Below, piece by piece: positions 1,717 through 24,071 of a stretch of DNA of 64,000 nucleotides. The DNA is from Candidatus Gastranaerophilales bacterium (GTDB lineage Bacteria; Cyanobacteriota; Vampirovibrionia; Gastranaerophilales; Gastranaerophilaceae): positions 15,062 to 79,061 of the forward strand of contig CALUUJ010000004.1 of NCBI GenBank assembly GCA_944323935.1, given 5' to 3'. The position numbers were made by a program, and so were the translations under genes. The notes beneath the pieces were generated by a model. It had not been told where the DNA came from and ran no database searches. It saw only the letters and a program-made list of their open reading frames with translations. Positions within the stretch are counted from its first letter, which is position 1. Each line of letters begins with the position of its first letter.

Positions 1717-1747
1717 GATAATCAATATTAATAGAGATTAGGGTAGT

Positions 1748-2833
1748 ATGATAAGTTTTTTAGATTTATACAAAGTTAATGAAAGATATAGGCAAGAAAT
1801 AGAGCAAAGAATAAAAAAAGTTCTCAATTCCGGCTGGTATATTCTTGGTAATGAATGTAAGACTTTTGAAGAAAATTTTGCAAAATATATAGGAGTAAAA
1901 CACTGCATTGGCTGCGCAAATGGACTTGACGCACTTAATCTGATAATAAAAGGTTATGGATTTAAGCAAGGAGATGAAATAATTGTACCTGCAAATACTT
2001 ATATTGCGTCAATTCTTGCTATTTCTGAAAATGGATGCTCACCTATTCTTGTTGAGCCTGATATAAATACTTATAATATTAATCCTGATTTAATTGAAGA
2101 AAAAATAACTAAAAAGACGAAGGCTATAATGGTTGTTCATTTATATGGACAAGCTGTTCAAATGAAGAGAATTTGGGAAATTGCAAAAAAATATAATTTA
2201 AAAATTATTGAAGATTCAGCGCAAGCTCATGGAGCTTATTATGAAAACAAAAGAACAGGTAATTTAGCTGATGCAGCAGGTTTTTCTTTTTATCCGGGGA
2301 AAAATCTTGGAGCTTTAGGTGACGGCGGTTGTATTACAACAAACGATGATGAATTAGCAGAAAAAGTACGCGCTATTGCAAATTACGGCTCAGACTACAA
2401 ATATCATCATATTTATAAAGGCATTAATTCAAGACTTGATGAACTTCAAGCTGCAATTTTAGATGTTAAACTCAAGTATTTAGATAAAGATAACAATAAA
2501 AGAAGTGAGATTGCAAAGTTCTACAGAAATAATATTATTAATCCTAAAATAATTTTACCTAAGACATACGCCGAAGCTTCACATGTTTGGCATATATTTG
2601 CCATAAGAGTTCAAGATAGAGATAAGTTTCAGAAATATTTAAAGCAGAATGGTGTTCAAACTGTCATACACTATCCAACTCCTCCTCATAAACAAGAGGC
2701 ATATAATGAATGGAAAAGTTTATCTTTCCCAATAACAGAAAAAATACATAATGAAATAATTTCTATGCCAATGTCGCCCGTAATGACAGATGATGAAGTT
2801 AATAAAGTTGTTGAGGTTTTAAATGATTGGTAG
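1748..2833 (+). CDS. DegT/DnrJ/EryC1/StrS-family PLP-dependent sugar aminotransferase (FdtB/QdtB-like)
   Basis: Has family motifs [24 protein letters not shown] and [16 protein letters not shown] (PLP lysine). It sits with the ketoisomerase and acetyltransferase genes. Confidence 0.85.
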
Positions 2834-3638
2834 CAAAAAAGATAAATTTGATTTTATCTGTTCTCTAGGTGGTAATTGCATGGTTTCTGCCCAATTAAAA
2901 CAGCGTAATTTAAGGATGTTCTCTCTTCCTTTTGATTGGCTTTATATGATAGATGACAAAGTACTGTATAATCTACCAAATTGTTTTAGAAATAAATTTG
3001 CTGATTTTATCCAAAAAGAAAATATGCGATATGTTCCTTTATCAGAAATACCTCAAACTACACATACTGATCGCGTTTTGTATCAGGATATGAAAACACA
3101 ATATTATTTTTTAAATCATTTTAACAAAAAGATTGATGAATCTTCTGAATATGATATTTTTAGAAAAAAAATGACAAAAAGAATTAATCGTTTTTTTAGT
3201 TGTATAAATAATTCAAAAAAAATTTTATTTTTACTAAGTCATTCTTTTTATATCTCTAATCAACCTTATATTGACATATATAATACTTTAAAACAACTGT
3301 ATCCTGATAAAGAATTTTTTATTAAAGTCATTCAATTTAATTCAGATGAACCTTCTTTTATAAGTAATGATGAAAAAATTGAAATAGATAGATATAAAAG
3401 AAAAGATAATTTATATGATTTTATAAAAACAAATATAGAATGGGAATTTCTAGATAACATAAAATGTGATTTTACAAAACTTGGAAATAACGTATTTATA
3501 TCTATTTACAAAATAAAAAAAGGTTTAAGTATAGTATTTTTTCCTTATATAAGCTCTTTAATAACTTTTAAAATGTACTTTTTGGGAATTAGATTTATAA
3601 TTTCTCTCGGGAAATTAAAAATTAATAGAGAGGTATGA
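2823..3638 (+). CDS. DUF1796-like protein (putative papain-like fold), glycan-cluster associated
   Basis: The N-terminus [31 protein letters not shown] resembles the DUF1796 signature as I recall it. The C-terminal tail is hydrophobic. It overlaps the aminotransferase stop by 11 nt. Confidence 0.45.
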
Positions 3639-3645
3639 AAATAAA

Positions 3646-4647
3646 ATGAATAATCTGGTTTCAGTTATTATCCCATCATATAATCATGAAAAATATGTTC
3701 AAGACACAATAAAATCAATAATTATGCAAACATATAAAAATATTGAACTTATAATTGTTGATGATGGTTCTACAGACTCTACTTTTCAGAAAATTGAAGA
3801 AATGAAAGATGAATGTGAAAAAAGATTTCAACATTTTTATTTTGAAACAAAGCAAAATGAAGGTACTATTGCAACTTTAAATAAATTATTTAGTTTAGCA
3901 AAAGGTGAATATATATATCTTATCGCTTCTGATGATATGGTTGCTGATGTGGATGCATTAAAAATTCAAGTTGAATTTTTAGATAAAAATCATAATTATA
4001 CTCTTGTTGTTGGCGATAACCAAATTATTGATGATAAAAATAAAAGATGTTTTTGGCTTGATGATCAAAGAAATATTACTTATGACGAAAATAATGCTAA
4101 ATATAAAACTTTTGTCGAATTTCTTTCAAAAAAAAATAATAATTTTAGAAATGAAAGTTTTGGCACATATAAATCTTTAAGACCTCATAATTATATCCCT
4201 AACGGATATTTAATAAGAAAATCAATATATGATAAAATTATACCCTTTTCGATAGAAGCACCTCTTGAAGATTGGTTTTTAATGCTACAACTTTCCAAAT
4301 ATGGAAAATTTAAGTTCTTTGATAAAATACTATTTTCATATCGCTGGCATGCTGCTAATACAATTAAGGATAGTAAAAAAATTTACCATTTGTCTGTCAA
4401 GACCTGTAATTATGAAAGACAATTAGTTAAAAATAATGATTTTTCAATGCTTGTGCCTAATATAAATGAGATAAATGAAATCGGGTTAATAAAGAGAACT
4501 ATAGGAATTAAAAATTTCTTTGAAATTTTAATATACAAAATACCATCAATTAAAACAATTATAATAAGAATATTTAATATTCAAATATATAAAAAAACAA
4601 AATTAAAAATAAATATAAATTATATAAAAAATATAGCACTTTTTTAA
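3646..4647 (+). CDS. Family 2 glycosyltransferase (GT-A)
   Basis: Has the canonical GT2 N-terminus VSVIIPSYNHEKYVQDTIKSIIMQTYKNIELIIVDDGSTDST and a later DD-containing motif (IASDDM). Confidence 0.85.
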   Translation: MNNLVSVIIPSYNHEKYVQDTIKSIIMQTYKNIELIIVDDGSTDSTFQKIEEMKDECEKRFQHFYFETKQNEGTIATLNKLFSLAKGEYIYLIASDDMVADVDALKIQVEFLDKNHNYTLVVGDNQIIDDKNKRCFWLDDQRNITYDENNAKYKTFVEFLSKKNNNFRNESFGTYKSLRPHNYIPNGYLIRKSIYDKIIPFSIEAPLEDWFLMLQLSKYGKFKFFDKILFSYRWHAANTIKDSKKIYHLSVKTCNYERQLVKNNDFSMLVPNINEINEIGLIKRTIGIKNFFEILIYKIPSIKTIIIRIFNIQIYKKTKLKININYIKNIALF

Positions 4648-4699
4648 GAACAAATGTTTTTATATAAGTAAGAGAAATATTTTTGAAAGAGGTTATATA

Positions 4700-4888
4700 A
4701 TGGCTAGAGTTTTAATTTCAATGCCCGAAGAATTTTTAAGCAAGATTGATGAAGTTGCTGAAGGGGAAAATAGAACAAGAAGTGAATTGATACGTGAAGC
4801 TTTAAGAACTTATATTCATAAACAGAGAGTTAAAGAAAATGCTATAGCAATGAGAAATGCAAGTATTTTAGAATCATTGCTTGACTAA
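4700..4888 (+). CDS. Ribbon-helix-helix (CopG/MetJ-type) DNA-binding protein, stand-alone
   Basis: Is 62 aa. The N-terminal beta-strand plus two helices pattern (RVLISMPEEFLSKIDEVAEGENRTRSELIREALRTYI) is typical of CopG-family RHH proteins. SD AGAGG lies 7 nt upstream. Confidence 0.7.
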   Translation: MARVLISMPEEFLSKIDEVAEGENRTRSELIREALRTYIHKQRVKENAIAMRNASILESLLD

Positions 4889-4918
4889 TACGACTACAGC
4901 TTTAGATTGGGAATGGGG

Positions 4919-4950
4919 AAAAAAGAAGCCTATAAAAAGGCTTCTTTTTG
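4919..4950. terminator. Bidirectional intrinsic terminator shared by the RHH gene and the convergent methyltransferase gene
   Basis: Has a 9-bp stem, aagaagcct (4923-4931) with aggcttctt (4938-4946), and a 6-nt loop. It is flanked by an A-run and a T-run. The right arm overlaps the last codons of the minus-strand CDS. Confidence 0.7.
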
Positions 4951-6309
4951 TACTCTTTCAAGCATTACAATTGTTTCAACGTGATATGTATTGGGAAACA
5001 TATCTACTGGTTGTATATAAATTGTTTTAAAGCCGTTTTCATTAAGTATTTTCATATCTCTTGCTAAAGTTGAAACATTACAGCTGACGTAAATAATATA
5101 TTTTTCTGTAATTCTTATCAAGTTATTTATTGAATTTAAACTGCAACCCTTTCGAGGCGGGTCTGTAATTGAAATATCAAATTTAATACCTTTTTTTATT
5201 AGTTTATCAAACTCAACTTCAGCATCTCCATTAATAATTTCAATATTTTTAATGTTATTTAATTTTACATTTGCTCTTGCATCTTCTGAGGCAGATTTAA
5301 CTTCTTCTATACAAACTACATTTGATGCAATTGAAGATAACCAAATACCGAAACTGGAAACACCTGAATATGCATCTAATATCGTTGGGTTAGTAATTTT
5401 TGAAAGTATTAATTCTTTTACCTTATTAAATATAAGTTCCGCACATAATGGATTTACTTGAAAGAAACTGTTTGCACTAATTTTATAATTAACTTCTGAC
5501 AGTTTCTCTATATAATAATCGGTTCCTATAATATTTTTAGTATTATTACTCATTATCACATTTGTTTTCTGTTCATTTAAATTAGCACATACTCCACTTA
5601 CTACAGGAAACTTCTCTATTATAGATTTAGACAATGCAGTTAATTTTTTATCAATATTATTAGAATTTATAACAAATATTATTAGAATTTGATTTAAATC
5701 AGATGAAATTCTATATACAATATGTCTTAATAGTCCTTTATGACTTTTTTCAGAGTATGCAGTTATTCCTAATTTTTGCGCTTCTGTTTTTATATATTCA
5801 TTGATTTCGTTTATGATTTGAGGCTGCATTGGACAATATTTTATGTTTATAAGCTCATGTGTATTCTTTTTATAATATCCGCTTAAAATTCTGCTTGAAA
5901 CTTTTGTTTGTGATACTGGCAATTGGATTTTACATCTATATTCTTTTATTTTGGGAGACGGTATTACATTTTGAACTTGAACATTATTTCCGGCTATTTT
6001 TTTTAAAGTTTCATCAATGATAATTCTTTTTTGATTGAGTTGCTCTTCATAAGAAATATGCAGCCAATCACAACTCCCGCATATATTATGAAAAGCGCAC
6101 TCGGGCTTAACTCTGTATGGCGAAGATTCTATTATCTTAACAATTTCTGCTGTTAAATAATTTTTGTTTATATGTGTGATTTTTATTTGCAATTTATCTT
6201 TAGGACAAGCACCTGATACAAATACGGGGATATTATTTAGTCTAGCAAGAGCTAAACCTTGATTTAGCATTTTTTCAATTTCTACAATATATTCTTCATC
6301 TGTAATCAT
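4930..6309 (-). CDS. 23S rRNA (uracil-C5)-methyltransferase, RumA/RlmD family
   Basis: Has an N-terminal TRAM-like segment, the Fe-S Cys cluster (CAFHNICGSCDWLH ... C), FFQVN, a SAM-binding region, DPPRKG and a catalytic Cys region (YVSCN). Confidence 0.85.
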   Translation of the reverse strand: MITDEEYIVEIEKMLNQGLALARLNNIPVFVSGACPKDKLQIKITHINKNYLTAEIVKIIESSPYRVKPECAFHNICGSCDWLHISYEEQLNQKRIIIDETLKKIAGNNVQVQNVIPSPKIKEYRCKIQLPVSQTKVSSRILSGYYKKNTHELINIKYCPMQPQIINEINEYIKTEAQKLGITAYSEKSHKGLLRHIVYRISSDLNQILIIFVINSNNIDKKLTALSKSIIEKFPVVSGVCANLNEQKTNVIMSNNTKNIIGTDYYIEKLSEVNYKISANSFFQVNPLCAELIFNKVKELILSKITNPTILDAYSGVSSFGIWLSSIASNVVCIEEVKSASEDARANVKLNNIKNIEIINGDAEVEFDKLIKKGIKFDISITDPPRKGCSLNSINNLIRITEKYIIYVSCNVSTLARDMKILNENGFKTIYIQPVDMFPNTYHVETIVMLERVQKEAFL

Positions 6310-8324
6310 ATTTCTTTGTATACTCTTTCAATAACTTCTTCCCAGTTATTTGTTTCCTTTTGTCTGAATATTTTTACACTATTATACCAAATTGTTTTAT
6401 CTTCATCATAAAACCAACGCCATTCGGCAGTTTTAGGCAAAAGCAAGAATGTTTTTATTCCTAAAGCTCCTGCTAAATGTGCAACAGAGGAATCAATTGT
6501 TATCATTAAATCCATATTTTTTAATAATGCTGCCGTATCAGAAAAGTCTTTAATATAGTTTTTTAATTTATGTATTTTTTCTGTCTCAATTTGACAATCT
6601 TCCATTTGAAAAGAATAGAAAGAACAATTTTCTTTTGTTAAAAGCTTTTCTATATCTTTGAAATTAACAGATCTATTTTTAAATATTTTCTTATTTCCCT
6701 GCCAGCACAAGCCAATTTTTTTATTTTTATTTTTAAATATATTTATTTTTTTATACTCACTTATCAGTTTTTGATTTGCGTTTAAATATGCTTCTTTATT
6801 TGATATTTGTGTAAAATCGAGATTTAAGGCATATTGTGTATCCATCAATGAAATCACAATGTCATAATTTGGTATTTGTTCTCCTTTTTTAATTATGTCT
6901 ATGTTAGGCATCGACTCTTTTAGCAGAGATATTAATTTCTTATCTGTCTGCAGCGTTAAATTTCTAACTTTTTGTTTTAAAATTGGAAGAAATCTTGAAT
7001 ACATAATCGTATCACCTAATCCGCAGTCAGAATAAACTAAAATGTCTTTGTCAAATAAATTAGCTTCTTTGACCCATATTTTGTCGTGGAATATTTCATT
7101 AAATTTGCTTTCTTTGCTTCTTAAAGTATATAATTTCATACCTTTCTCAAATTGTTTCTCAGACAAGTAAATCATTCCAAGGGTTATTTTACTTTGTATG
7201 GAACAATTTGGTTCTTCATTAATTTTTTCTAAAATTTCTTTTGATTTTATTACATTATTTAAATATTTGAGTGCAACGGCTTTTCCGTGCAAATAATTTA
7301 AATTTTTATTATTTAGCAGTATTGCTTTGTTGTAATTTTCAAGTGCTTTATCATATTCGCACAAATCCATATAATTTACGGCTAATTGTGAATATGCCTC
7401 AGCGGAATTTTTATTTAAATTAATTATTTTATTTAATACATCAATACTTTCGCTATTTTTATAAAGTAATCTGTAAGTTTGAGCAAGGCTTAAAAGTAAG
7501 TTCTCATCATTTTGCTTTATATTGTAGCCTTTTAGTAAATACTCCAAAGCTTTTGTATTGTCTTTATCTTTGTAAAGTGATGCAATATTTATATATGATT
7601 CTATATGTCTTTCATTTAATTCAATTGACTTAATATATGCAGCTTCTGCTTCTTGATATTTACCTGTTCTTGATAAAAGTACACCAAGGTTATAAAAGTA
7701 AATATATTTTTTATTATTAAGTAAAATAGCTCTTTTTAAACAAATAATTGCAGAATTATAATCTTTTATATCTTCATAATACCCTGATAGTAAAGCAAAA
7801 ATATCTTCATCATTATTTTTAATTTCTAAGCATTTGTTTGCATATAAAATCGCCTCTTGGATTTTATTTTGATCTTTATAGGCAAGTGACAAATTATATA
7901 ATGCAGAATAGTTTTGTGCGTTGAGTTCTATCGCTTTTTTATAATTTAATATAACGTTTTCATAATCATTGATTTTTTTGTATGCCAATGCTATAGAGTA
8001 GTATATATCATCATTCTCTCCATATAATAAAGCTTGTTCATACATTTTTATTGCTTTCTCAGGTTCTGAGTTAAAATAATAAGCTTTTGCTAAGTTAGAA
8101 GCAATATATGATGATTTTTTTAGTATAAATGCTCTGGATAGGTAATTTATTGCCTCTGGTGGATTTTGCTTTGATAAATACAGCAAACCTATAAGGTTTA
8201 AAATATTTACATCATCCTGTTTTATCTGTAATAGCTCTTTATATATTCTTTCGGCTTCATCAAATTTATCTTGCTGATGATATTTATATGCCTCATCAGT
8301 CTTTTCTTGATAGTTGTATTTCAT
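6306..8324 (-). CDS. TPR-repeat protein fused to a GT9 (heptosyltransferase-like, GT-B) domain
   Basis: The N-terminal ~400 aa are TPR repeats. The C-terminal part has GT9-type motifs (GLGDTIMYSRFLP, IGLCWQGN, DTAALLKNMDLMITIDSSVAHLAGALGIKTFLLLP, EWRW). It has a 4-nt overlap with the downstream methyltransferase gene. Confidence 0.75.
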   Translation of the reverse strand: MKYNYQEKTDEAYKYHQQDKFDEAERIYKELLQIKQDDVNILNLIGLLYLSKQNPPEAINYLSRAFILKKSSYIASNLAKAYYFNSEPEKAIKMYEQALLYGENDDIYYSIALAYKKINDYENVILNYKKAIELNAQNYSALYNLSLAYKDQNKIQEAILYANKCLEIKNNDEDIFALLSGYYEDIKDYNSAIICLKRAILLNNKKYIYFYNLGVLLSRTGKYQEAEAAYIKSIELNERHIESYINIASLYKDKDNTKALEYLLKGYNIKQNDENLLLSLAQTYRLLYKNSESIDVLNKIINLNKNSAEAYSQLAVNYMDLCEYDKALENYNKAILLNNKNLNYLHGKAVALKYLNNVIKSKEILEKINEEPNCSIQSKITLGMIYLSEKQFEKGMKLYTLRSKESKFNEIFHDKIWVKEANLFDKDILVYSDCGLGDTIMYSRFLPILKQKVRNLTLQTDKKLISLLKESMPNIDIIKKGEQIPNYDIVISLMDTQYALNLDFTQISNKEAYLNANQKLISEYKKINIFKNKNKKIGLCWQGNKKIFKNRSVNFKDIEKLLTKENCSFYSFQMEDCQIETEKIHKLKNYIKDFSDTAALLKNMDLMITIDSSVAHLAGALGIKTFLLLPKTAEWRWFYDEDKTIWYNSVKIFRQKETNNWEEVIERVYKEI

Positions 8325-10449
8325 CTTTAACTCTTTTTATTACTTCATTCCATTGATTTGGATTTTTTTGCTTAAATATTTTAATACTATCATACCATGG
8401 AGTTTTTTCTTCATCAGTAAACCATCTCCATTCGCTATCGTATGGAAGAAGTAAAAATGTTTTTATTCCCATAGCCCCAGCTAAATGTGCTATTGAGGTA
8501 TCAATTGTTATTAAAATGTCAATATTTTTTAGTAATGCTGCAGTGTCGTTATAATCTTTAATATATTCAGATAAATCAATTAAAGGTAAGGTATTTTTTA
8601 ATTTTTCAGACTCATCATCAATTTTGGATATTTGAAATGAAAATATTTGTATATCTGAAATATCAAATAATGGTAGTAACTCTTTTAATTTTACGCTACG
8701 ATTAAAAAATACTGTCGGATTTCCTTGCCAAAAAAGACCAATCTTTTTCTTATTTGTATTAAATACTTTTAATTTTGCTTTTTCTTTAACTGATTTTGGT
8801 GAAACTGTTAGATACCCTTTTGATGACGGAATATTATTTAAATCTGTGCCAGAACAACATATTGCATGCATTTCTGACATTGAATAATCATATAAATTTT
8901 CATCAATATTTTCCCCTTTTATATAAATTTTAAGTTTTGGAAAATTATATTTTACTAATCTTTTCAGGTTTTTTGGTATATATAGTAATACAGTATTGGA
9001 TTTTTCTTTTATGATATTAATATATCTGCAAAACATTAGGAAATCACCAATTCCGTGGGAGCAGTAGATCAGAATATTTTTATTTTCAGTTTTATCGTTA
9101 ATATTTATACTTTTCTTTGAAAATATCTGAAGAATATTTAAATTGTTGTCACTATCCTTACCAAATGATAAGAACTCTTCTTCGGATATACTAAATTTTT
9201 CCAAGATATTAAGTTTATTAAAAAATTTTCTTGCTTTATGCTCTATATAATTAATATCATGAATACGATTATAAAATTTAAAATATTCGTCAATAATACT
9301 TTTTAGCTCTTTTTGTTTTAATTTTATGACAGTATATGTATCATTAAAACAATTTATAGATTTTAAAATTTCCTCAGAAATATCAAGGTCACCATTAGAA
9401 CAATATGCATTTGCAAGACTTTCTTTAACAGATTTATTATCAGGAGAAATTTTTAATGCTTCTTTATAAGAATCTATTGCTCTAGTATACTCCATTAACT
9501 CTAGATAACAGTCACCTGCCATTATATAATATAGATATTCGTTAGAATTTCTATTAATTAACTCAAGAGCAATATTAAGCGCATTTTTATAATCAAACAT
9601 TTCATAATAAATCAAATATATATAAAATGGAATTGATAAATCATTAGGGAAAATTTTTTGTATATCATAATATATTTCTATTGCATTTTTCATATCGATA
9701 GATTTGTATGTTAATGCAATATTTAGCATTGCATTCTTGTTATTTGGATTTATATGTATGACCTTATCAAAAGATTCAACTGCTTTCTTATAATCCCCGC
9801 TTTTTTTATATAAAATACCAAGTTGATATAAAATTGATTCATCTTGATTATTCGCAGCAACTTTTTCCAAGAATATTATTGCATTACTATAATCTTTTAA
9901 TTCTTCATATAAATATGCAATATGTAAAAGTATATCTTTATCGTTATGATTAGTTTCAAAAGCCTTTAATGCATATTTCAATGAATCTTGTATATTATTT
10001 AAGTATTTATAACATAATGATATATTGTAATATAATTGAGAATTATCAGAAATTATTTTTGTCAATTCTTTGAAATAATAAATTGCTGTTTCATAATCTT
10101 TTTCGCCCATATATGAAAGAGCAAGAATATTTTTTGTGTTTTGGTCTTTTAAACCTGAGTTTTTTAATATATCAATAGCAGATTTATGCTTTTTTTTATA
10201 CATATATATCTGTGCAATATTTATTTTTATTTCTTCTAATTTTGTTTTATTATATATTTTTTTAAATATTTCCAATGCTAAATCATAATTTTTAAGAGAA
10301 ACATTTAATTGTGCATACAAATTCTGAACATTTAAATCATCAGGATTTATAGATAAAAGTTTATTATAGACATCTAACGCTTCATCTAATTTACCTGAAA
10401 CGTGCATATTGTAAGCAATATCAACTAGTTTTGAATAAGATTTATCCAT
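8296..10449 (-). CDS. TPR-repeat protein fused to a GT9-like domain (tandem paralog of 6306..8324)
   Basis: Has the same architecture and near-identical C-terminal motifs (GIGDFLMFCRYIN, IGLFWQGN, DTAALLKNIDILITIDTSIAHLAGAMGIKTFLLLP, EWRW). It overlaps the paralog by 29 nt. Confidence 0.75.
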   Translation of the reverse strand: MDKSYSKLVDIAYNMHVSGKLDEALDVYNKLLSINPDDLNVQNLYAQLNVSLKNYDLALEIFKKIYNKTKLEEIKINIAQIYMYKKKHKSAIDILKNSGLKDQNTKNILALSYMGEKDYETAIYYFKELTKIISDNSQLYYNISLCYKYLNNIQDSLKYALKAFETNHNDKDILLHIAYLYEELKDYSNAIIFLEKVAANNQDESILYQLGILYKKSGDYKKAVESFDKVIHINPNNKNAMLNIALTYKSIDMKNAIEIYYDIQKIFPNDLSIPFYIYLIYYEMFDYKNALNIALELINRNSNEYLYYIMAGDCYLELMEYTRAIDSYKEALKISPDNKSVKESLANAYCSNGDLDISEEILKSINCFNDTYTVIKLKQKELKSIIDEYFKFYNRIHDINYIEHKARKFFNKLNILEKFSISEEEFLSFGKDSDNNLNILQIFSKKSININDKTENKNILIYCSHGIGDFLMFCRYINIIKEKSNTVLLYIPKNLKRLVKYNFPKLKIYIKGENIDENLYDYSMSEMHAICCSGTDLNNIPSSKGYLTVSPKSVKEKAKLKVFNTNKKKIGLFWQGNPTVFFNRSVKLKELLPLFDISDIQIFSFQISKIDDESEKLKNTLPLIDLSEYIKDYNDTAALLKNIDILITIDTSIAHLAGAMGIKTFLLLPYDSEWRWFTDEEKTPWYDSIKIFKQKNPNQWNEVIKRVKDEIQLSRKD

Positions 10450-10487
10450 AACATTATGATAATTGATGTATTTTTTATTGGCAAGTA

Positions 10488-13166
10488 TTACATGATTTCA
10501 GGCAAAGTTGACTTGTCAATACCTAATTTTTCAAGATAATCAAAAATAGGACCTTGCTTACCTTTTCGAATCCAACTAAAGTCTTCACTCAATGAATCTT
10601 GAACCATCTTTTCGTATTGTTCGGGATTTTCAAAGTATATTTTTAAGCCTTCCTTCATTGCTTGATAAAAACCCTCAGCAGTTAATGGTTTCTTATTATC
10701 AGTTAGAATACCGTTTGTTTTTCCGTCTCTATTAACTGTATCAACAATACCGCCAACTGCACTTCCAATTACCGGTGTACCAAGTGCAAATGATTCACCT
10801 TGAGTTAAGCCGCAAGGTTCAAAAATACTCGGAAGCAAGAAGAAGTCAGAACTTGCAGTTAGTGCACTCATTGGCGCAAAACCATGTGCAAAAACAATTC
10901 TATTAGAATCTTCTTGAGATAGTTTTTTATTCTTTAAATCTTCAATATATTTCCTTTGTGTACCGTTCTCACCGTCTTGTCCTGCAATATAGAAAATTGG
11001 TTTATTCTTTCCTGGAAAATCTTTTTCCCAGTTTTCCATAAGCAATTTTATTGCTTCTGACATTATCCCTATTCCCTTTTGTGAAACTAAACGGCCGACA
11101 GATGTTATAATCGGAGTTTGTGCTAACTCATTATCTGATAATATTGGTAATTCGGTTTTTCTTTCTCCTTCAACAAATTCTAATTTGCTTGAAATTTTTC
11201 TAACTCTTTCAACATTTTCACCAGAATTAGACTTATCATTTTTGTGTGAAAATGGAAGCATATAATCATTATAAAAATTTATTTTGTTAACTAATCTTGC
11301 TGACATTATTTGAGAAATATCTGTTTCTCTGTTATATGTTTTTGGCAAGATACCGGTTTGTTGTTGAATTTGCGCTTTTTTCGCTTCTATGGACAAATTA
11401 TCAAAATCATTACCATTAATAATTCCAACTAAGGATCCTGATTTTGCTTTTTGGTTTAGAGCCCATCTTAATTCACCGGCTAATTCAGGATGATCGTCTG
11501 AGATTATCTCTTTTGCGTAGTTTTGCGAAACCGGATGAAAATAATTACTTAAGCAAATACCCATATTCAAAAGATTTGTATGATTTGCATACGGGTCTTG
11601 TATATTCATTATTAATACATTATCTAAATTCTTTAATCCGTGATCATTTGGATTTATATTTGAAGCATTTGTTTTTGAATTTAGAACTATATCATATGTA
11701 TAAGAGTCAAATAGAGTATTAAGAATGTTTGTTGTTGAATCTTTTCTTTGAGAATTATTATTATTATTTTGTGTTGATCCTTGATACATTGTATTGTGAC
11801 CAATAGTTATGATATTCATTTCAGATAATGTTTTTGAAGCTTCGTCTGATAGCTCTCCGTAAGCATTTTCCATAGGCGCCTTATATCTTGCTAAAGCAGC
11901 AATTGGAGAACTTTGCCAATCATTTAAAATTAGACCGTCCGGTGCTTTTATTGAGTTAAATGTCTCTTTATCAAATATTCTTAAATCTTTTATGCTATTT
12001 ATATCAGCTTTCGCTTTTGCCAGTTCATAAACAGCTTTCGAGAAAAATGCAAACTTCTCAGGTTCTTCAGTCTTCTCGCTTGTTTGATATATAGTGCCAT
12101 TAAAATAGTTATCATTTTTTATGAAAATTAATTGTTTTTCTCTACTATCACTATCTTTTGTTGTACTAACAAATATCTCAACATCTTCAGTTTTGGATTT
12201 TCCGCCTTGATAAGCGTCAACTTTAAAAGATGCAGCTTTTTTAAGTTTGAATTCTTTTCCTTTGTATGAATAAATGTAATCATCTCCATCTTGTCTAAAA
12301 GCAGCAATGCCCTTCTGTTGGTACATTGGAATAAATGTTGGTATATTTATACCAAGCTTTGTAACATTATTCTGGATTTCAACAGGAACAGAACCAAGAC
12401 CACCTTCTTTGATTGGGGCAAATTCTGAAGTAACAGACCATAATGTAGGATTGTCCTTTGTAATTGGTTTCGTACTTGGGTTTTCATATAGATATGTTGA
12501 AGCAGCATTTTGAATTTGTTTAATTGCTTGTGAATATTTTTGTTCATTTTTATTCAATGAATTTGAATTTTTTAATAATTGTATTCCATTTATGTCTACT
12601 ACATATTTTTTACTTAAACTATTTCCATTTAATCCTATTGCTTGTTCTGCCGAAGAAAGCGCTCTGGATGATTTTGAATCTATATCACTAACTTTTGCGG
12701 ATACTTTGTTTGGTAATTCTTGTTTTAAATCATCAGAAAGGTCACCGGCTTTATATGCTGTGCCAAGTCCTGCCAGTGCCAGTAATACTGACCAAATTTT
12801 AGCATTTTCTTTCTTTGAACTATTTACAATACTTTGTACATTTTGAGTAGATAATACAGCTCTTTGCTCAGCAACTGCTTGCATCTTTGCAATATCATCA
12901 CTTAAATTTCTAATTTGACCTTTTAACTCACTTATTATCGTATTATTTAATGCTGAAACTTTTTTTGTAGTTAGTTTTGTAGCAATAAGGGCTGTTACAG
13001 GAATAGCCGCAATTGATATTGCTATAGGTGCAACAGTCTTTGCTGTTTCAATAACTTTTTTCTTTTTTTCAGCTTGTATACTTGTTTTATTTGAAGTTGT
13101 TGAATCTGCAACATTTGAAATGTATACCGGATTTGTTCTAAATTCAGAAAACACACCTATGTTCAT
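10488..13166 (-). CDS. GT5 glycogen/starch-synthase-like glycosyltransferase with a long membrane-anchored N-terminal extension
   Basis: Has a GT5 start (WSVTSEFAPIKEGGLGSVP, compare the GGLGDV motif) and a C-terminal EPCGLTQGESFALGTPVIGSAVGGIVDTV. About 255 aa before the catalytic domain carry two hydrophobic helices and a coiled-coil-like stretch. The start is moved to ATG 13166 (MNIGVF) because AGGAG lies 6 nt upstream. Confidence 0.75.
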   Translation of the reverse strand: MNIGVFSEFRTNPVYISNVADSTTSNKTSIQAEKKKKVIETAKTVAPIAISIAAIPVTALIATKLTTKKVSALNNTIISELKGQIRNLSDDIAKMQAVAEQRAVLSTQNVQSIVNSSKKENAKIWSVLLALAGLGTAYKAGDLSDDLKQELPNKVSAKVSDIDSKSSRALSSAEQAIGLNGNSLSKKYVVDINGIQLLKNSNSLNKNEQKYSQAIKQIQNAASTYLYENPSTKPITKDNPTLWSVTSEFAPIKEGGLGSVPVEIQNNVTKLGINIPTFIPMYQQKGIAAFRQDGDDYIYSYKGKEFKLKKAASFKVDAYQGGKSKTEDVEIFVSTTKDSDSREKQLIFIKNDNYFNGTIYQTSEKTEEPEKFAFFSKAVYELAKAKADINSIKDLRIFDKETFNSIKAPDGLILNDWQSSPIAALARYKAPMENAYGELSDEASKTLSEMNIITIGHNTMYQGSTQNNNNNSQRKDSTTNILNTLFDSYTYDIVLNSKTNASNINPNDHGLKNLDNVLIMNIQDPYANHTNLLNMGICLSNYFHPVSQNYAKEIISDDHPELAGELRWALNQKAKSGSLVGIINGNDFDNLSIEAKKAQIQQQTGILPKTYNRETDISQIMSARLVNKINFYNDYMLPFSHKNDKSNSGENVERVRKISSKLEFVEGERKTELPILSDNELAQTPIITSVGRLVSQKGIGIMSEAIKLLMENWEKDFPGKNKPIFYIAGQDGENGTQRKYIEDLKNKKLSQEDSNRIVFAHGFAPMSALTASSDFFLLPSIFEPCGLTQGESFALGTPVIGSAVGGIVDTVNRDGKTNGILTDNKKPLTAEGFYQAMKEGLKIYFENPEQYEKMVQDSLSEDFSWIRKGKQGPIFDYLEKLGIDKSTLPEIM

Positions 13167-13253
13167 ACAAAACTCCTTTTCCACACAAATTTTAGAAGTT
13201 GCATAAATCAATGAAAATGCTTTTTTTAGCCTTTTTATGAAAAAATTGTTACA

Positions 13254-14342
13254 TTAAAAATAAAATTTTGAAATTACTAATTTGAAAAAATAATCACTTA
13301 TTGTCTTTTGTGGTTTATTTTTATCAAAAATAAAATTTATATCTATGGGAGAACAACTTTCTATAATATTATACCTTTTTATTAAATCTTCAATATGTGC
13401 CCATATTTGCCAATCAATATCAAATAAATTTGAAATTTTTATGAAATACTTTGTCAATTCAATTATTTCAAGCATTGTTTTTTTATCATCAAAATTTTGT
13501 CTTAACCAATGTAAATCTATATTTAAGATTACTCCTGATACATTTGCTTTCTTTGATTTTAAGATAAATTTTAAGATTTCCTTTTTGCTGTTGTTAACAT
13601 TAGGAATAATTATAAACTTTGTTCTGACTGAGTTATTGAAAATTTTAGAATTAATACCGCTTGAGTATTCTTTTATATTCTGCCATACAGTATTCCATAA
13701 ATTCTTTCTTTTTATAAATTCAAATTTCTTTGGTGTTCCTGAATCAATTGACGATATGACCGAAACTACACCTTTCTCTATGCCTTTTTTAATACTTTCT
13801 GAGAAAATCGTTGCATTAGTATTAATATTGATATCTTTAACTCCATTATCTATAAGCAATGATAGAAGCTCGTTAAAATTTCTATCTAATGTAGCTTCTC
13901 CGCCTGCAATATCTATTTTTGTATTTTTAGTTATTATCTTTTTCTCCAGCATGTCCTTTATTACTGGAATTAAGTTATATTCTTTAGTATTATTTATTAC
14001 ATTTTTATCTTTATGATTTGAACAATATATGCAAAAAAGATTACATTTTACCCAAACATTAAGTAAAATATAACGAAATTCTCTTTCTCTTTTGTCCCAA
14101 TTTGCATTCTTAATCCATAAGCAATCACTGCAAGCAGGCAAAGATGAACCTCTTTTCATAAGCTCTATATGCTCATCTCTTTTTTTAAAAAATTCGTCCC
14201 AATCAATTAATTCGCCAGTGTAGTTTTCATATAGTACAGGCTGACCTCCATTGGGCGTTAACATACAACAATAACCAATTTTGTTTAAATGATTAAAAAA
14301 TAATTCACCTTCTATTGAATGGCAGCTTCTATACGTATTCAT
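13254..14342 (-). CDS. Radical SAM enzyme with N-terminal Cys-rich module (paralog P1 of the 45463..48434 trio)
   Basis: Has CNLFCIYC (CxxxCxxC), IAGGEATL and IIPNVNN motifs. The N-terminal module has SC..IEG, YCC and ACSDC..W, which align with the other three paralogs. Confidence 0.8.
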   Translation of the reverse strand: MNTYRSCHSIEGELFFNHLNKIGYCCMLTPNGGQPVLYENYTGELIDWDEFFKKRDEHIELMKRGSSLPACSDCLWIKNANWDKREREFRYILLNVWVKCNLFCIYCSNHKDKNVINNTKEYNLIPVIKDMLEKKIITKNTKIDIAGGEATLDRNFNELLSLLIDNGVKDININTNATIFSESIKKGIEKGVVSVISSIDSGTPKKFEFIKRKNLWNTVWQNIKEYSSGINSKIFNNSVRTKFIIIPNVNNSKKEILKFILKSKKANVSGVILNIDLHWLRQNFDDKKTMLEIIELTKYFIKISNLFDIDWQIWAHIEDLIKRYNIIESCSPIDINFIFDKNKPQKTISDYFFKLVISKFYF

Positions 14343-14436
14343 AATTTTCTATTAATTTATGTTTCAAATTACAATCTTGCACCTATTCATTATACAATAT
14401 TAAAATAATATTTAGGAAGAAAATAAAAGGTTTATT

Positions 14437-16251
14437 ATGAAATTAAAAGAAACAGAAGCATTAACTTCATTTAAATATGGATGGCTATTAAAACGAATTT
14501 TTCCATATATTAGGCCATTTTTGGGAAAAGTAATACTTGGTTTTTTAATTGCTATTCCTGTTGGTTTGTTAGATGGAGTTGTATCTTTTGCTTTAAAACC
14601 ATACATGGATTATGTTATAGGCCAGCAAAATCTTATAATTTTCGGTATGGAAATACCATATATGACATTGGCGTACGGAATGCCCTTTGCTATAATTTTC
14701 TTTGCCATTTTTCAAGGAGTGCTCAGATATTTAAATTCTTACCTTACAGATTGGACAAGCTTAAAAATTACTAATGCTGTAAAAAATGATTTATTTGCAA
14801 GATTAGTTTTTATGGATACTTCCTTTTTTGATGAAAATTCATCCGGGTTGATTATTAACAGATATCTTACGGACCCTGATTCTGCATCGAAAGGTATTGT
14901 TGAGCAAATTAAAACATTTATAATAAGTTTATTTGGTGCTATGTCATTAATTGTTGTAATGTTGTATAGTTCTTGGAAACTTGCAATTGTTGGTGTTTTG
15001 GTTTTAGCTATTGCTTTTGTACCTGTTTTCTTTATTAGAAAAAAAATAAAATCAGTTTCTAATAAAAATACTGTTATTACTGGCGATATTATGACTACAA
15101 TTAATGAGACATACTCTGGGAACAAGGTTGTTACTGCATATAATTTGCAAGAAAGACAAAAAAAATTATTTACAGATGGTATAAACAAAAGCTTTAATGT
15201 CTCAATTTCACTTACAAAACGTGTAGGCTGGATGTCCCCAATTATGTATTTAATTGCATCATTTGGGATTGCATTCGTACTGTTTTACGGAACAAAACTT
15301 ATATACTCCGGTCAAATGACAGCAGGTTCTTTTGCTTCATTTGTAACTTCATTGTTACTTTTATATAAACCAATTAAAACATTAGGTAATACAATGACAA
15401 GCATACAAAATATCTTTGTTGCGATGGGGCGTGTTTTTGAGCTTTTCGATTATGTTCCCCTAATTAAAGATGCTGAAAATACAGTAAATTTACCTCCACT
15501 ACTAAACGGTGTTACTTTTGAAAATGTTAATTTTGAATATGTTGAAAATAAACCAATTTTAAAAAACATTAATTTGAAAATATCCAGAGGAGAAACTCTT
15601 GCTATTGTGGGTAATTCTGGCGGCGGGAAGTCTACTTTTGTTAATTTAATTCCTCGTTTTTACGATGTTAATTCTGGTTCAATAAAGTTTGATAATGTTG
15701 ATATAAGAAAATTTAAACTGAATGAATTAAGAAAGAATATTTCATTTGTTTTCCAAGATAATTTTTTATTCACAGGTACAATAAAAGAAAATATACTTCT
15801 AGCAAATCCAGAAGCAAGCCAAGATGAATTAAAAATGGCCTTGTCTGCATCACATCTTGATGAAGTAATAGATTCACTACCTGACGGCTTAGATACTATA
15901 TTGGGAGAAAGAGGGCTTACACTTTCTGGCGGTCAAAGACAACGAGTTGCTATTGCAAGAGCAATGATTAGAAATACACCTATTATAATATTAGATGAAG
16001 CCACTTCTGCATTAGATAACGAATCTGAAGCAATCGTTCAAAAGGCTCTGGATAATTTAATAAAAAATAAGACTGTATTTATAATTGCCCATAGACTTTC
16101 AACTATTAAAAATGCAGACAGGATTGCTGTAATAAATGATGGTGAATTAGTTGAACTCGGTACGCATGAAGAGTTACTTTCTATAGAAAACGGACAATAT
16201 AAACATTTATATGAAATGCAATTTAAAAATTCAGAGGAATTAGCTAAATGA
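14437..16251 (+). CDS. ABC exporter, fused permease/ATPase, MsbA-like (lipid/glycolipid flippase type)
   Basis: Has a six-TM N-terminal half, Walker [10 protein letters not shown], signature [14 protein letters not shown], Walker [13 protein letters not shown] and an H-loop IAHRLST. Confidence 0.85.
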
Positions 16252-17183
16252 AAAGAGTTTTAATAACAGGTGGTGCAGGTTTTATTGGATCACATTTATC
16301 GGAAAGATTATTAAATGAAGGTAATGATATAATTTGTTTGGACAATTTTTTTACTGGTTCAAAAGATAATATAAGACATTTAATCGGAAATAACAGATTT
16401 GAATTAGTCAGACACGATATTATTAATCAATATCTTGCCGAAGTTGATGAAATATATAATTTAGCTTGCCCTGCTTCTCCTGTTCATTACCAGTATAACC
16501 CCATAAAAACAATGAAAACTTCTGTAATAGGAATGATAAATATGCTGGGACTTGCGAAAAGATGTAAAGCAAAAATATTACAAGCAAGTACAAGTGAAAT
16601 TTATGGAGACCCACAAATTCATCCACAGATAGAATCGTACTGGGGAAATGTCAACCCGATAGGACTTAGAAGTTGTTATGATGAAGGAAAAAGATGTGCA
16701 GAAACCCTTATGATGGACTACCACAGACAAAATAATATTGATATTAGAATAGCTCGTATTTTTAATACATATGGACCAAGAATGGCATTGAATGACGGAA
16801 GAGTCGTATCTAATTTTATTATTCAGGCGTTAAAAAACGAACCTATAACTGTTTATGGCGACGGTTCTCAGACAAGAGCATTCTGCTATGTTTCTGATTT
16901 AGTTGATGCTTTAATTAAATTAATGAATTGTAATTATTCTCAACCCGTAAATTTAGGTAATCCGGATGAGCATACGATTATTGAATTTGCAAAATTGATT
17001 ATTGAGCTAACAAATTCAAAATCTGAAATAGTATTTAAAGAACTGCCTTCTGATGATCCTGTTCAGCGTGAACCAAATATTTCGCTTGCGAAACGGATTT
17101 TGAATTGGGAACCACAAATTCAACTAAAAGAAGGTCTTTTGAAAACCATTGAATATTTTGATAAAATAATCTTTCAGCAGTAG
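16248..17183 (+). CDS. UDP-glucuronate decarboxylase (UDP-xylose synthase)-like SDR
   Basis: Has a Rossmann motif [12 protein letters not shown], catalytic YDEGKR, and 311-aa length with overall UXS-like conservation ([28 protein letters not shown]). It has an ATGA overlap with the ABC exporter gene. Confidence 0.8.
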
Positions 17184-17187
17184 TGAA

Positions 17188-18324
17188 ATGCAGGTATTCT
17201 GTTTGAAAAAGATTTTTTTTCTATTATCATTCATAGTATTAAATTCTTCAGTAAATTGTTATGCAATTGAAGAAGTTGAACTAGAAAGCGAAAAACTTAA
17301 TCTTGATTATTTTTCTGACGTATATTACGGAAAAATTGAAAATAATGACAATGTTTCTCCAATATTAAGATTATTTTCCGAAAAAGGCTATGAATTTAAA
17401 AATTCTCCTGTAAATTCAGTTAAATTTTATTTTTTATATGATGGACAGCTTTCATTTACAAGTATTAATCATTATTCAACACACTTTAGGCATGATTTTA
17501 CAACTATTGAGCCAATGGTATCCGTAAGATTTAATGAAGGCCGTTCAGAACTTATGTTTGACTATAATCTTGCAAGAAATTTAGAGGGATATTCAAACTC
17601 TTTTACACAAAAAATTTCAGAGTTTTACATTTCACATAAAGTTACAGAACAACAAACAATATTGATTGGACAAGGAGCCAGACTTCCTAATTCATTCGAC
17701 GGTTCCAGAGGAACAATGGAAAGAGAAATGATTCTCAAGTCCCAGCTGGGTCGTACTTTTGGAGAAGCACGCTCTGTCGGACTTAGAAATATAGCCAATT
17801 ATAAATACTTAGAATATGACATTGGACTATATGATAGTACCAGGTATATGAAAGATTTTGGTAATGGTTTTGATTTTACGGGACATATAATGCTAAAACC
17901 ATTCTCTAACATTAAAGAGAAAACAGGTAATTTAAAAATTGGAACATCATATTCTATTGGAAAGAATAATATTAGCTATAATACATATTCTCTATTTTTG
18001 GGATATGATTATAAACGTTTACATTTTCACACAGAATATGCAAGTGCAGACGGATATAATGGTATATTTGAATCTAAAGATAATGCAGATGGTTTTTATG
18101 TTTTAATTTCATATGACATTACCCCCAAAGTATCAATACTTGGAAGATATGATTATTTCACTCCTAATAGAAATTTTTTAAATTCTTATTGTCAAGAATA
18201 TACAGCTGGAATTACATACAAATTGTTTAAAAATATGAAAATTATGCTTAACTATGTTAATAGAAATTATTCAAACAGACCTGATTCAAATATGATTCTA
18301 TTTGCTACCAGATTTATTATTTAG
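17188..18324 (+). CDS. Putative outer-membrane beta-barrel / porin-like protein
   Basis: Has an N-terminal signal-like segment (FFLLSFIVLNSSVNCYA) and alternating amphipathic beta-strand pattern rich in Y/G/N (GITYKLFKNMKIMLNYVNRNY). No specific family could be recognised with certainty. Confidence 0.5.
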   Translation: MQVFCLKKIFFLLSFIVLNSSVNCYAIEEVELESEKLNLDYFSDVYYGKIENNDNVSPILRLFSEKGYEFKNSPVNSVKFYFLYDGQLSFTSINHYSTHFRHDFTTIEPMVSVRFNEGRSELMFDYNLARNLEGYSNSFTQKISEFYISHKVTEQQTILIGQGARLPNSFDGSRGTMEREMILKSQLGRTFGEARSVGLRNIANYKYLEYDIGLYDSTRYMKDFGNGFDFTGHIMLKPFSNIKEKTGNLKIGTSYSIGKNNISYNTYSLFLGYDYKRLHFHTEYASADGYNGIFESKDNADGFYVLISYDITPKVSILGRYDYFTPNRNFLNSYCQEYTAGITYKLFKNMKIMLNYVNRNYSNRPDSNMILFATRFII

Positions 18325-18336
18325 TATAATTATTTT

Positions 18337-19404
18337 ATGAAAGAAATAGATATAGAAAAAATAGAAAAATTAATAGCAAAAATTGTAAACAATCCAAATG
18401 ATACTGATTCATATTTAGAATTAGCAAATTTATATTTGGAAGAAGACGAATATGATTTAGCTATAAATATATATGAAAGCTTGTTAAATATTGAACCACT
18501 AAATTTTGTTGCATTAACAAACTTAGGAAGTTTGTACTTTTATAAAAATGAATATTTGAAAGCTATAAATTACTACTCTCGCGCTGTTAGTTTAGGCATT
18601 GATAATTTTTCAATATTTTATAACCTTGGTAATGCATATGCTGAACTTGGTGAGTTTAAGCAAGCAATGTCAAATTATGTAAAAGCATTGAATATAGAAA
18701 AAAATAATTACCAGGTATATTCTGCAATCGCACTTTTATATCAAGATCAAAAAAATTATGAAGAGGCGTTAATATATTTTGACAAAGCTTTAAAATTAAA
18801 AAATGATATTCCTGAAAATTATCTTAATATTGCATTCGTCTTAATGAAGTTGGGACGCCCTCTTGAAGCCGCAAATTTATTTGAAAAAGCCCTTATAATT
18901 TCTCCGGATAATAATGCATTCTTGTTGTATTGTGCTAATGCCTATTCATCTGCAAAGTCCTATAATAAAGCAAATAAATTATTTGATGATGTTATAGAAA
19001 GAGATCCTTCTTTTTATCAGGCATATATTTGCTACGGAATTTCACTATATGATCAAAGCAATATTGAAGAGTCAATAAAGATGTATGAAAAAGCTATATC
19101 TATAAATCCATCAATTTCAAATAGTTATATGTTACTTGGTAATTTATATTGTTCTGAAAATGACTATGAGAGAGCTGTTGATTTATATAACAAAGTTATT
19201 CAAATTGAACCGACAAATAGCAATGCATATACACTTTTAGGAAATACATATGTTATGATGAAAGATTTAAGATCTGCAATATCTTCATATAAACAAGCAA
19301 TTGATATTGATACAGAAAATGATGAGCTTAAATTAATATATATAGAAACAATTCAAGAATTTATCCAAAATAGGAATAATGAAGGAGCAATTGATGCAGC
19401 ATAA
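18337..19404 (+). CDS. TPR-repeat protein
   Basis: Has about 9 consecutive 34-aa TPR units (e.g. AINYYSRAVSLGIDNFSIFYNLGNAYAELGEFKQA). Confidence 0.8.
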   Translation: MKEIDIEKIEKLIAKIVNNPNDTDSYLELANLYLEEDEYDLAINIYESLLNIEPLNFVALTNLGSLYFYKNEYLKAINYYSRAVSLGIDNFSIFYNLGNAYAELGEFKQAMSNYVKALNIEKNNYQVYSAIALLYQDQKNYEEALIYFDKALKLKNDIPENYLNIAFVLMKLGRPLEAANLFEKALIISPDNNAFLLYCANAYSSAKSYNKANKLFDDVIERDPSFYQAYICYGISLYDQSNIEESIKMYEKAISINPSISNSYMLLGNLYCSENDYERAVDLYNKVIQIEPTNSNAYTLLGNTYVMMKDLRSAISSYKQAIDIDTENDELKLIYIETIQEFIQNRNNEGAIDAA

Positions 19405-21342: not shown

Positions 21343-21402
21343 ATAAAAACATAATAAAAAATTTTTTTACTATATACAAAATAATATTTACAGAAATTTA
21401 AA

Positions 21403-22488: not shown

Positions 22489-22528
22489 ATTTCTCTTCCA
22501 ATTAAACGCTAAAGTTTTATTTATCGTA

Positions 22529-24028: not shown

Positions 24029-24071
24029 TTTAATAAAAAATTATCTTAGTCTATATTCCAGTACAATATGG

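Follow-up and report, generated by a model that had tools for sequence, protein, structure and literature searches.

The window analysed here is a stretch of 64,000 nucleotides of a Candidatus Gastranaerophilales contig (CALUUJ010000004.1, positions 15,062 to 79,061). On its minus strand lies a run of five open reading frames (ORFs), from 14342 to 4930, which opens with a radical SAM gene (P1), continues with a gene for a glycosyltransferase (GT) of family GT5 and with two genes for proteins in which a tetratricopeptide repeat (TPR) array is fused to a GT9-like domain (TPR-GT A and TPR-GT B), and has rlmD as its final gene. The original prediction, made from the letters of the DNA and a list of its ORFs, saw in the first four genes a candidate envelope or protein-glycosylation module. 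The comparison of gene order and of the individual proteins leads us to favour, with some confidence, another reading, by which the block would be made of co-oriented neighbours on a long colinear stretch of the chromosome, with three independent parts and no single dedicated pathway. The genes and the features around them are the following.

13254..14342, minus strand: radical SAM gene P1, 362 amino acids (aa); Pfam Radical_SAM, 48 bits
10488..13166, minus strand: GT5 gene, GlgA/starch-synthase-like glycosyltransferase, 892 aa from the ATG at 13166; PF08323 and PF00534
8296..10449, minus strand: TPR-GT9-like protein A, 717 aa; N-terminal TPR array and C-terminal GT9-like GT-B domain (ca. nt 8299-9237)
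6306..8324, minus strand: TPR-GT9-like protein B, 672 aa; TPR array and GT9-like GT-B domain (residues 371-672, nt 6309-7214)
4930..6309, minus strand: rlmD (23S rRNA m5U1939 methyltransferase), 459 aa; TIGR00479, 373.7 bits against a cut-off of 183.6
4920..4949, no strand: terminator-like hairpin (12-bp stem, T run) that separates the end of rlmD from the convergent GT2 gene
14343..14436, no strand: divergent intergenic region between P1 and msbA, 94 bp; presumed bidirectional promoter region
14437..19404, plus strand: divergent neighbours, i.e., an msbA-like ABC exporter, a UXS/ArnA-C-like short-chain dehydrogenase/reductase (SDR), a porin-like protein and a 355-aa TPR protein (TPR355)

Read from the sequence, P1 is separated from the GT5 gene by 87 nt and the GT5 gene from TPR-GT A by 38 nt, the two TPR-GT genes overlap by 29 nt, and TPR-GT B overlaps rlmD by 4 nt (ATGA). 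A consensus scan of the interval 4500-14600 gave a single terminator-like hairpin, the one at 4920-4949. The ORFs, spacings, overlaps, 94-bp divergent region and lone hairpin that had been described earlier were all recovered, the rRNA methyltransferase is RlmD by its TIGR00479 score, and the msbA-like, UXS-like and porin-like identities of the divergent genes were borne out by domain matches (TIGR02203 MsbA with 513 bits, under its cut-off of 602; PF16363 and PF01370 for the SDR; weak matches for the porin). A promoter scan was uninformative in this AT-rich DNA (26-30% GC), with 70 sites found and 71 expected in shuffles. The five genes are probably co-transcribed. The mechanically called ORF of GT5 (10488-13211) opens at a TTG, 45 nt 5' of the ATG at 13166, and the shorter form is the likely product, since the homologues align from this ATG (MxIGxFS...) and a GGAG box precedes it.

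We compared gene order in 77 GT5 loci, taken from a scan of one genome per GTDB species and nearly all belonging to metagenome-assembled genomes (MAGs) of Gastranaerophilales/Melainabacteria, by running tblastn with the window proteins against these loci and a hidden Markov model (HMM) of the TPR-GT C-terminal domain (C-domain) against all their ORFs. Within one Gastranaerophilales clade, whose GT5 proteins are 52-93% identical and which we call the syntenic clade, msbA, UXS, porin and TPR355 are read in one direction and, diverging from them, GT5, TPR-GT and rlmD in the other. A TPR-GT gene lies 3' of GT5, tightly packed, in 34 complete and two contig-truncated loci of this clade; the B-type copy is constant, and 17-18 of the loci, about half of the syntenic relatives, have an A-type orthologue in front of it. 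An extended set, in which 20 window genes were compared with 31 clade loci and their 10-kb flanks, showed that much more than the block is kept: rlmD in 29 loci, TPR-GT B in 30, msbA in 28, UXS in 31, the porin in 23 and TPR355 in 25, followed by a 150-aa ORF (31), a 504-aa unknown protein (26), a GlmS-isomerase-like SIS protein (31) and a TolC-like OEP (27), while GT2b and PMT_2 were present wherever the flank extends to them. The colinearity covers at least 22 kb, from rlmD at 4930 to the GT2/PMT_2 pair at ca. 26762, through functionally unrelated genes, and ends abruptly beyond rlmD, where a sugar cassette (899-4647) is shared by only 1-3 of the 31 loci.

The adjacency of GT5 and TPR-GT is kept no better than those with rlmD, msbA or the SIS gene, which makes the synteny weaker evidence for a shared function. 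Furthermore, in the sister and basal clades (L039-L064 and L070) a GT5 gene of ca. 850-890 aa is found beside methionine gamma-lyase, an SLH protein, an M16 peptidase, ClpB and PSP1, and the HMM search of the locus ORFs gave no TPR-GT C-domain within 10 kb of GT5 in L039-L064. TPR-only proteins located before rlmD in L049 and L067 were considered as diverged TPR-GTs and rejected, as the C-domain is absent. The conservation of gene order, which the original prediction had put forward as one way to check the module, is thus real across the clade, but it is a general colinearity over at least 22 kb and not a property of the block, and the coupling of GT5 with TPR-GT as a module fails in the sister and basal clades, where GT5 has unrelated neighbours and no TPR-GT nearby. 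The lesson is that same-strand packing and a kept order reflect here the clade-wide, long-range colinearity and not a functional module.

The distribution of P1 points in the same direction. Only 8 of the ca. 36 syntenic loci (L001-L004, L015, L027, L035 and L055) have an orthologue (55-92% identical), placed between msbA and GT5; in the other ca. 28, msbA directly adjoins GT5 with a gap of 146-347 nt. The claim of a functional module is left with its GT5 to TPR-GT to rlmD order, kept in the 34 complete and two truncated loci, and loses its radical SAM member in most of them. The absence of P1 from most syntenic loci indicates that it is dispensable and not coupled to the glycosyltransferases. 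Lineages with P1 are dispersed over the neighbour-joining GT5 tree, and the identities of P1 and GT5 to their counterparts track each other (92/93, 79/82, 71/62, 58/64 and 55/59%), as would be expected from vertical descent, ancestral presence and repeated loss. A recent insertion was rejected on the same two grounds. P1 was thus probably ancestral at this site and has been lost many times.

As a protein, P1 is matched by Radical_SAM (PF04055, 48 bits against a cut-off of 29.5), and the cysteines and other residues of its core CxxxCxxC motif (residues 100-107, nt 14022-14045, C100-N-L-F-C104-I-Y-C107) are invariant in the alignment. It was described as a fourth paralogue of the radical SAM trio at 45463-48434, to which it is indeed 30-35% identical. 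The trio itself (minus strand) is flanked by a 2-hydroxyacid dehydrogenase and by a 449-aa protein without family match. Cysteines at C7, C25/26, C71 and C74 are conserved in the N-terminal region of P1 and its paralogues, a pattern that suggests an auxiliary metal site, and P1 orthologues carry an additional, P1-specific C-terminal tail of ca. 40 residues that ends in a predicted helix. The AlphaFold2 model (predicted local distance difference test score, pLDDT, 93.3) retrieved with Foldseek only generic radical SAM matches (SuiB, BlsE, SkfB, PFL-AE and DesII, TM at most 0.5), and the best profile matches in the PDB were MoaA and SkfB (E ca. 1e-8). What P1 shares with all of these and with N_Twi_rSAM is the CxxxCxxC core. 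It differs from MoaA, N_Twi_rSAM and the SPASM enzymes in that it reaches no curated NCBIfam cut-off (61.6 against 284 bits for MoaA, 50.1 against 170 for N_Twi_rSAM, NF033640), has no SPASM match in Pfam, and has its four extra cysteines at the N-terminal side and not in a C-terminal SPASM/twitch domain. A Kyte-Doolittle scan detected no hydrophobic segment in it.

The family to which P1 belongs is large, with 839 clusters at 50% identity in an exhaustive profile search (E <= 1e-30). Its members have ca. 330 aa, although it includes double-length proteins of ca. 645 and 993 aa, in which two matched stretches mark fused tandem paralogues (P0287-P0291), and the only named entry among the sampled clusters is “radical SAM protein.” Two P1 paralogues from elsewhere sit among ribosomal and other housekeeping genes. 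No link of the family with glycan metabolism emerged, nor any sign that P1 acts on the products of GT5 or the TPR-GTs. P1 would then be an accessory paralogue of a large family of ca. 330-aa radical SAM proteins with an N-terminal four-cysteine domain, vertically inherited and mostly lost.

The second part of the block is the GT5 gene. Its product is matched by PF08323 (Glyco_transf_5, 78.6 bits against 22.7, residues 259-573) and PF00534 (Glycos_transf_1, 64 bits), and it scores below the curated GlgA models (TIGR02095, 171.4 bits against a cut-off of 328.45; all the NF0019xx GlgA models, far below theirs). Three motifs, K253-E-G-G-L (residues 253-257, nt 12396-12410), G-R692-L-V-S-Q-K697-G and F-E783-P-C-G-L, do not vary across 12 diverse homologues. 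Among solved structures, the best matches are Arabidopsis SS4 (6gne, E 1.8e-13), GBSS, SSI and the GlgA of E. coli; the score comes mostly from the C-terminal half, which aligns to Arabidopsis SS4 across the catalytic motifs. The protein had been called membrane-anchored, and it does have one strong hydrophobic segment (residues 44-62, nt 12981-13037, Kyte-Doolittle 2.1), the position of which is retained even in distant homologues. These also keep a second hydrophobic motif (W-x-A-L-L-A-L-A-G-x-x-G-Y), located at residues ca. 125-140, and the two would fit a hairpin with the catalytic domain on the cytoplasmic side. A helical linker is predicted between the N-terminal segment and the catalytic GT-B domain. 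The GT-B fold and the KxGGL, RxxxxK and E-P-C-G-L motifs are shared with GlgA and the plant SSIII-SSIV enzymes (CAZy GT5), and a long, partly helical, non-catalytic N-terminal extension is shared with SS4. GlgA is much shorter (ca. 480 aa versus ca. 890): the protein of the window adds the transmembrane segment, the second hydrophobic motif and ca. 170 extra residues in and after the N-terminal Rossmann half.

Homologues of ca. 860-910 aa form more than 120 clusters, the named ones being “glycogen/starch synthase” of Candidatus Gastranaerophilales or of “Cyanobacteria bacterium SIG29,” and by this sequence record the long GT5 is a standard gene of the order. Intestinal Melainabacteria have been reported to possess an active GlgC (ADP-glucose pyrophosphorylase), a single GlgA and a GH57 GlgB branching enzyme (bioRxiv 10.1101/2021.06.18.448987). 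This would fit the GT5 protein as glycogen synthase, if it is the single GlgA of that report. No glg genes were found near GT5. We consider that the protein is probably the long GlgA/starch-synthase-type alpha-glucan synthase of the order, in which an N-terminal hairpin or anchor and the helical linker would hold the cytoplasmic GT-B domain at the inner membrane, and which would most likely elongate an alpha-1,4-glucan (glycogen) with ADP-glucose supplied by GlgC. A membrane-tethered, SS4-like enzyme would thus be the apparently universal glycogen-type synthase of gut Melainabacteria, which bears on the organisation of storage glucan in these non-photosynthetic relatives of cyanobacteria and on the ancestry of the SSIII/SSIV-type synthases. 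At one locus (L068:174-10329) there are apparently two GT5-like copies (ca. 3953-6727 and 8239-10329) and, on the opposite strand, a radical SAM paralogue of the P1 family.

The third part is formed by the two TPR-GT genes. Both proteins have strong TPR matches in Pfam (residues ca. 10-370 in B), and the original description of them as TPR-GT9 fusions is upheld by the fold and the motifs of the C-domain, the Pfam signal being weak. PF01075 scores 21.8 bits on full-length B (cut-off 22) and 23.6 bits on its C-domain alone, is found in 17 of 21 TPR-GT C-domains at E <= 0.01 (best 1.2e-6), and does not appear at this threshold among the best 25 of the 27 Pfam families on full-length A. The AlphaFold2 model of the B C-domain, built with 99 sequences, has a pLDDT of 95.9, and in the Foldseek search ranks 1-16 and 19-29 were all of GT9 type, with 3tov (E 1.8e-8, TM 0.61), WaaF, WaaC and TibC (the chains include 1psw, 2h1h/2gt1 and, for TibC, 4rb4/4rap). 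When a sequence profile of the same domain was run against the PDB, all matches were designed TPR proteins except 3tov (E 0.23); this search was dominated by a residual TPR helix at the start of the domain.

We also found in one Gastranaerophilales MAG a canonical GT9 gene, heptosyltransferase-like and of 338 aa (L013:1368-2384; TIGR02201, 104 bits), 8.6 kb upstream of GT5, which shows that the lineage has ordinary GT9 enzymes apart from the TPR-GTs. When aligned to it with hhalign, the TPR-GT C-domain gave a probability of 95% (E 3.6e-8) with only the C-terminal half aligned, and the segment DTSvAHLAGA of the former was paired with DTSCMHLAIA of this heptosyltransferase II/III-like protein. 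The positions invariant in the TPR-GT C-domains are G65, G67, D68, R74, R181, D226-T-A, D235, D241, H246, A-G-A, R266-W and W276-Y, so that both the N-terminal GxGD and the nucleotide-sugar motif D241...H246-L-A-G-A (D(T/S)xxxHLAxA) are invariant in the family. A, which is 33% identical to B, retains the family-invariant GxGD, R, DTA, D, H, RW and WY positions. In the Kyte-Doolittle scan, which was run without a dedicated signal-peptide predictor, neither A nor B showed a hydrophobic segment.

With the C-terminal 300 residues of B we retrieved 2041 homologues (E <= 1e-3), spread across phyla that include Pseudomonadota (Thiotrichales among the groups represented). Most bear an N-terminal TPR array, of variable length, and the names, where there are any, read “tetratricopeptide repeat protein” or “TPR-containing glycosyltransferase family protein.” No partner gene recurs in five contexts of distant or paralogous members: one homologue (L078) is found beside a separate GT9 fragment and housekeeping genes, and two others (L081 and L084) among housekeeping genes. 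In a Thiotrichales locus (L080:1-9380) a 459-aa TPR-GT9 homologue lies 54 nt 3' of an ORF of 14,827 aa, a possible glycosylation substrate. At L082:1-9398, a shorter Gastranaerophilales paralogue (465 aa) ends a cluster composed of an aminotransferase, two epimerases, an HpcH aldolase, an SDR, a dehydroquinate (DHQ)-synthase-like gene, a thiamine pyrophosphate (TPP) enzyme and a GT2, which looks like the pathway of an unusual sugar. We found in the literature no paper on TPR-GT9 fusions and no characterised member, and broader searches gave only FlmG and Maf.

Several known systems resemble the TPR-GTs in one half or the other. WaaC, WaaF, 3tov and TibC share with A and B the GT-B fold over the C-terminal ca. 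250 residues (Foldseek E 1.8e-8 to 1e-4) and the GxGD and D(T/S)xxxHLAxA motifs; TibC is an example of a GT9-type fold able to glycosylate proteins in the cytoplasm. They differ from A and B in that the similarity in sequence is marginal (ca. 22-24 bits for PF01075), the TPR-GT domain is more compact than WaaC, and the TPR array of ca. 370-400 residues is missing from WaaC, WaaF and TibC; nor do A and B show an iron-finger or dodecamer signature, or any sign of ADP-heptose use. The other resemblance is in architecture. FlmG, the pseudaminyl/legionaminyl transferase of Caulobacter, and OGT are likewise cytoplasmic and have the same order of parts, N-terminal TPR and C-terminal GT-B. The TPR of FlmG binds flagellin and its GT-B domain transfers pseudaminic acid in the cytoplasm (PMC7591256), and together with Maf-1 it provides a precedent for TPR as the dock of an acceptor (PMC7591256; bioRxiv 10.1101/2023.12.03.569772). 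The FlmG family has been described as confined to Caulobacterales (bioRxiv 10.1101/2023.12.03.569772), whereas the TPR-GT family spans many phyla. Among the window ORFs of at least 120 aa scanned against Pfam we saw no flagellin, flagellar or nonulosonic-acid genes, which were also missing from the five homologue contexts, and no genes of the ADP-heptose pathway. Membership of GT41/OGT was rejected for the TPR-GTs, as PF13844 does not appear at E <= 0.01 (for A, among the best 25 of 27 families) and the neighbours by fold are GT9.

A protein-directed role for the TPR-GT9 enzymes is plausible. A and B would be soluble cytoplasmic enzymes whose TPR array of ca. 370-400 residues may dock a macromolecular acceptor, most likely a protein, and whose GT9-type GT-B domain (with the catalytic Asp in GxGD and the D-T-x-x-x-H-L-A-G motif) would transfer one sugar from a nucleotide sugar, in a mode of action that can be likened to those of FlmG, OGT or TibC. 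The duplication into A and B would give two acceptor or two donor specificities. It is also conceivable, although we advance it only tentatively, that the whole TPR-GT9 family is a large, phylum-spanning class of cytoplasmic protein glycosyltransferases targeted by TPR, the GT9-fold counterpart of FlmG and OGT. If so, the A/B pair would glycosylate specific proteins, with each TPR array setting the acceptor specificity, and the target might be a translation-related or an envelope-bound protein, as the vicinity of msbA and a translational coupling to rlmD that is constant would suggest. This would add to OGT/GT41 and FlmG a widespread third architecture of cytoplasmic bacterial protein glycosyltransferases that pick their substrate with a repeat domain, of which more than 2000 candidates are already in the databases as “tetratricopeptide repeat protein.”

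There is an alternative for these enzymes in the lipopolysaccharide (LPS), in which they would act on the LPS core or on a lipid-linked glycan, as heptosyltransferases do, together with the divergent msbA, UXS and porin genes, the TPR being used, as in LapB, for assembly or regulation at the inner membrane and not to dock a protein acceptor. By fold, the nearest solved structures are indeed two LPS heptosyltransferases, WaaC and WaaF, and a GT9 without assigned function, the GT9 motifs are retained, msbA is 2.7-6 kb away with UXS/ArnA-like, GT2/AglJ-ArnC-like and PMT_2/ArnT-like genes around, and the shorter Gastranaerophilales paralogue mentioned above ends a sugar-biosynthesis cluster. We nevertheless regard this explanation as rather unlikely. 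A and B have no membrane segment, their sequence similarity to WaaC/WaaF is marginal (profile E 0.23 to 3tov), and TPR arrays that exceed 350 residues are typically protein-binding. Besides, the lineage has its separate 338-aa canonical GT9, the sister clades keep LPS-type genomes without a TPR-GT at this locus, and in other phyla most homologues stand alone amid housekeeping genes. A third role would tie the TPR-GTs to the GT5 protein in the initiation of storage glucan, by glycosylating or recruiting the synthase in a glycogenin-like priming or regulation. Adjacency and likely co-transcription speak for it, and it would explain why TPR-GT lies directly 3' of GT5, which resembles SS4-type synthases; plant SS4 uses N-terminal coiled coils and partner proteins in granule initiation. 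Yet about half of the order has GT5 without a nearby TPR-GT, homologues of the latter are often found in phyla and contexts where GT5 is not a neighbour, and GT9 enzymes are inverting transferases of heptose-type sugars, a chemistry unlikely to prime an alpha-glucan, so that we give this idea very little credit.

For the block as a whole, the single dedicated envelope or protein-glycosylation module of four genes would have GT5 build a membrane glucan or primer, the TPR-GT9 enzymes attach or decorate it on an acceptor (a protein or part of the envelope), and P1 use radical chemistry to modify either this acceptor or the sugar. The same strand, the short gaps and overlaps and the one terminator are what such a module would look like, the GT5 to TPR-GT order is kept in 34-36 loci, P1 is always at this site when present, many database orthologues of P1 apparently share contigs with orthologues of GT5, and the sugar-modifying radical SAM enzymes BlsE and DesII are among the structural neighbours of P1. 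On the other hand, P1 is missing from ca. 28 of 36 syntenic loci, GT5 has unrelated neighbours and no nearby TPR-GT in other Gastranaerophilales clades, the kept order spans at least 22 kb, in which rlmD and further unrelated genes are found, P1 paralogues and distant TPR-GT homologues sit among housekeeping genes, and there is no flippase, polymerase or export gene on the strand of the block. We therefore find the module improbable, and a dedicated pathway of radical SAM, GT5 and TPR-GT9 enzymes is not supported. We lean instead, and with more conviction, towards co-oriented neighbours with three independent parts, among which the TPR-GT genes would be one ancestral copy (B-type) and one duplicated copy (A).

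Some observations do weigh against this preference. The 38-nt gap, the overlaps of 29 and 4 nt and the single terminator amount to operon-like packing, and operons commonly contain the genes of one pathway. Envelope and glycan genes abound in the neighbourhood (msbA, UXS/ArnA-like, porin, GT2, PMT_2/ArnT-like and the FdtA/DegT cassette), for which reason an envelope role of the GT9-like enzymes has to be taken seriously. P1, where present, is always at this exact site, and every P1-positive locus with enough flank also has a TPR-GT. Finally, the GT5 protein reaches 171 of the 328 bits asked of a curated GlgA and its N-terminal Rossmann half is highly diverged, with large insertions, so that a product other than glycogen is possible.

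Beyond the block, the plus-strand cassette at 899-4647 (an FdtA/WxcM-like isomerase, a hexapeptide acyltransferase, a DegT aminotransferase, DUF1796 and a GT2) is of the 3-acetamido-3,6-dideoxyhexose type. Its presence in only 1-3 of the 31 colinear relatives marks a hypervariable glycan locus, which begins immediately beyond the terminator of rlmD. On the other side, the order kept in the clade (14437-26762) is msbA, UXS/ArnA-like, porin, TPR355, the 150-aa ORF, the 504-aa unknown, SIS and the TolC-like OEP, followed by a divergent pair of GT2 (AglJ/ArnC-like) and PMT_2/ArnT-like genes; together with DegT these look like scattered pieces reminiscent of a lipid A modification of the aminoarabinose type. 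The SIS protein in this region (21403-22488, minus strand, 361 aa) corresponds to the isomerase half of GlmS only (two SIS domains, model residues 252-604), without the glutaminase domain. The RNA genes detected in the window were a large bacterial signal recognition particle (SRP) RNA (42072-42326, minus strand, 79 bits) and a tRNA-Ser(GCU) (28016-28107, minus strand), and no others. Among the loci compared, five (L009, L025, L068, L075 and L060) are labelled “uncultured Muribaculaceae bacterium” or “Gammaproteobacteria bacterium” and yet have the genes and the synteny typical of Gastranaerophilales; a wrong label or a binning error is probable for these MAGs.

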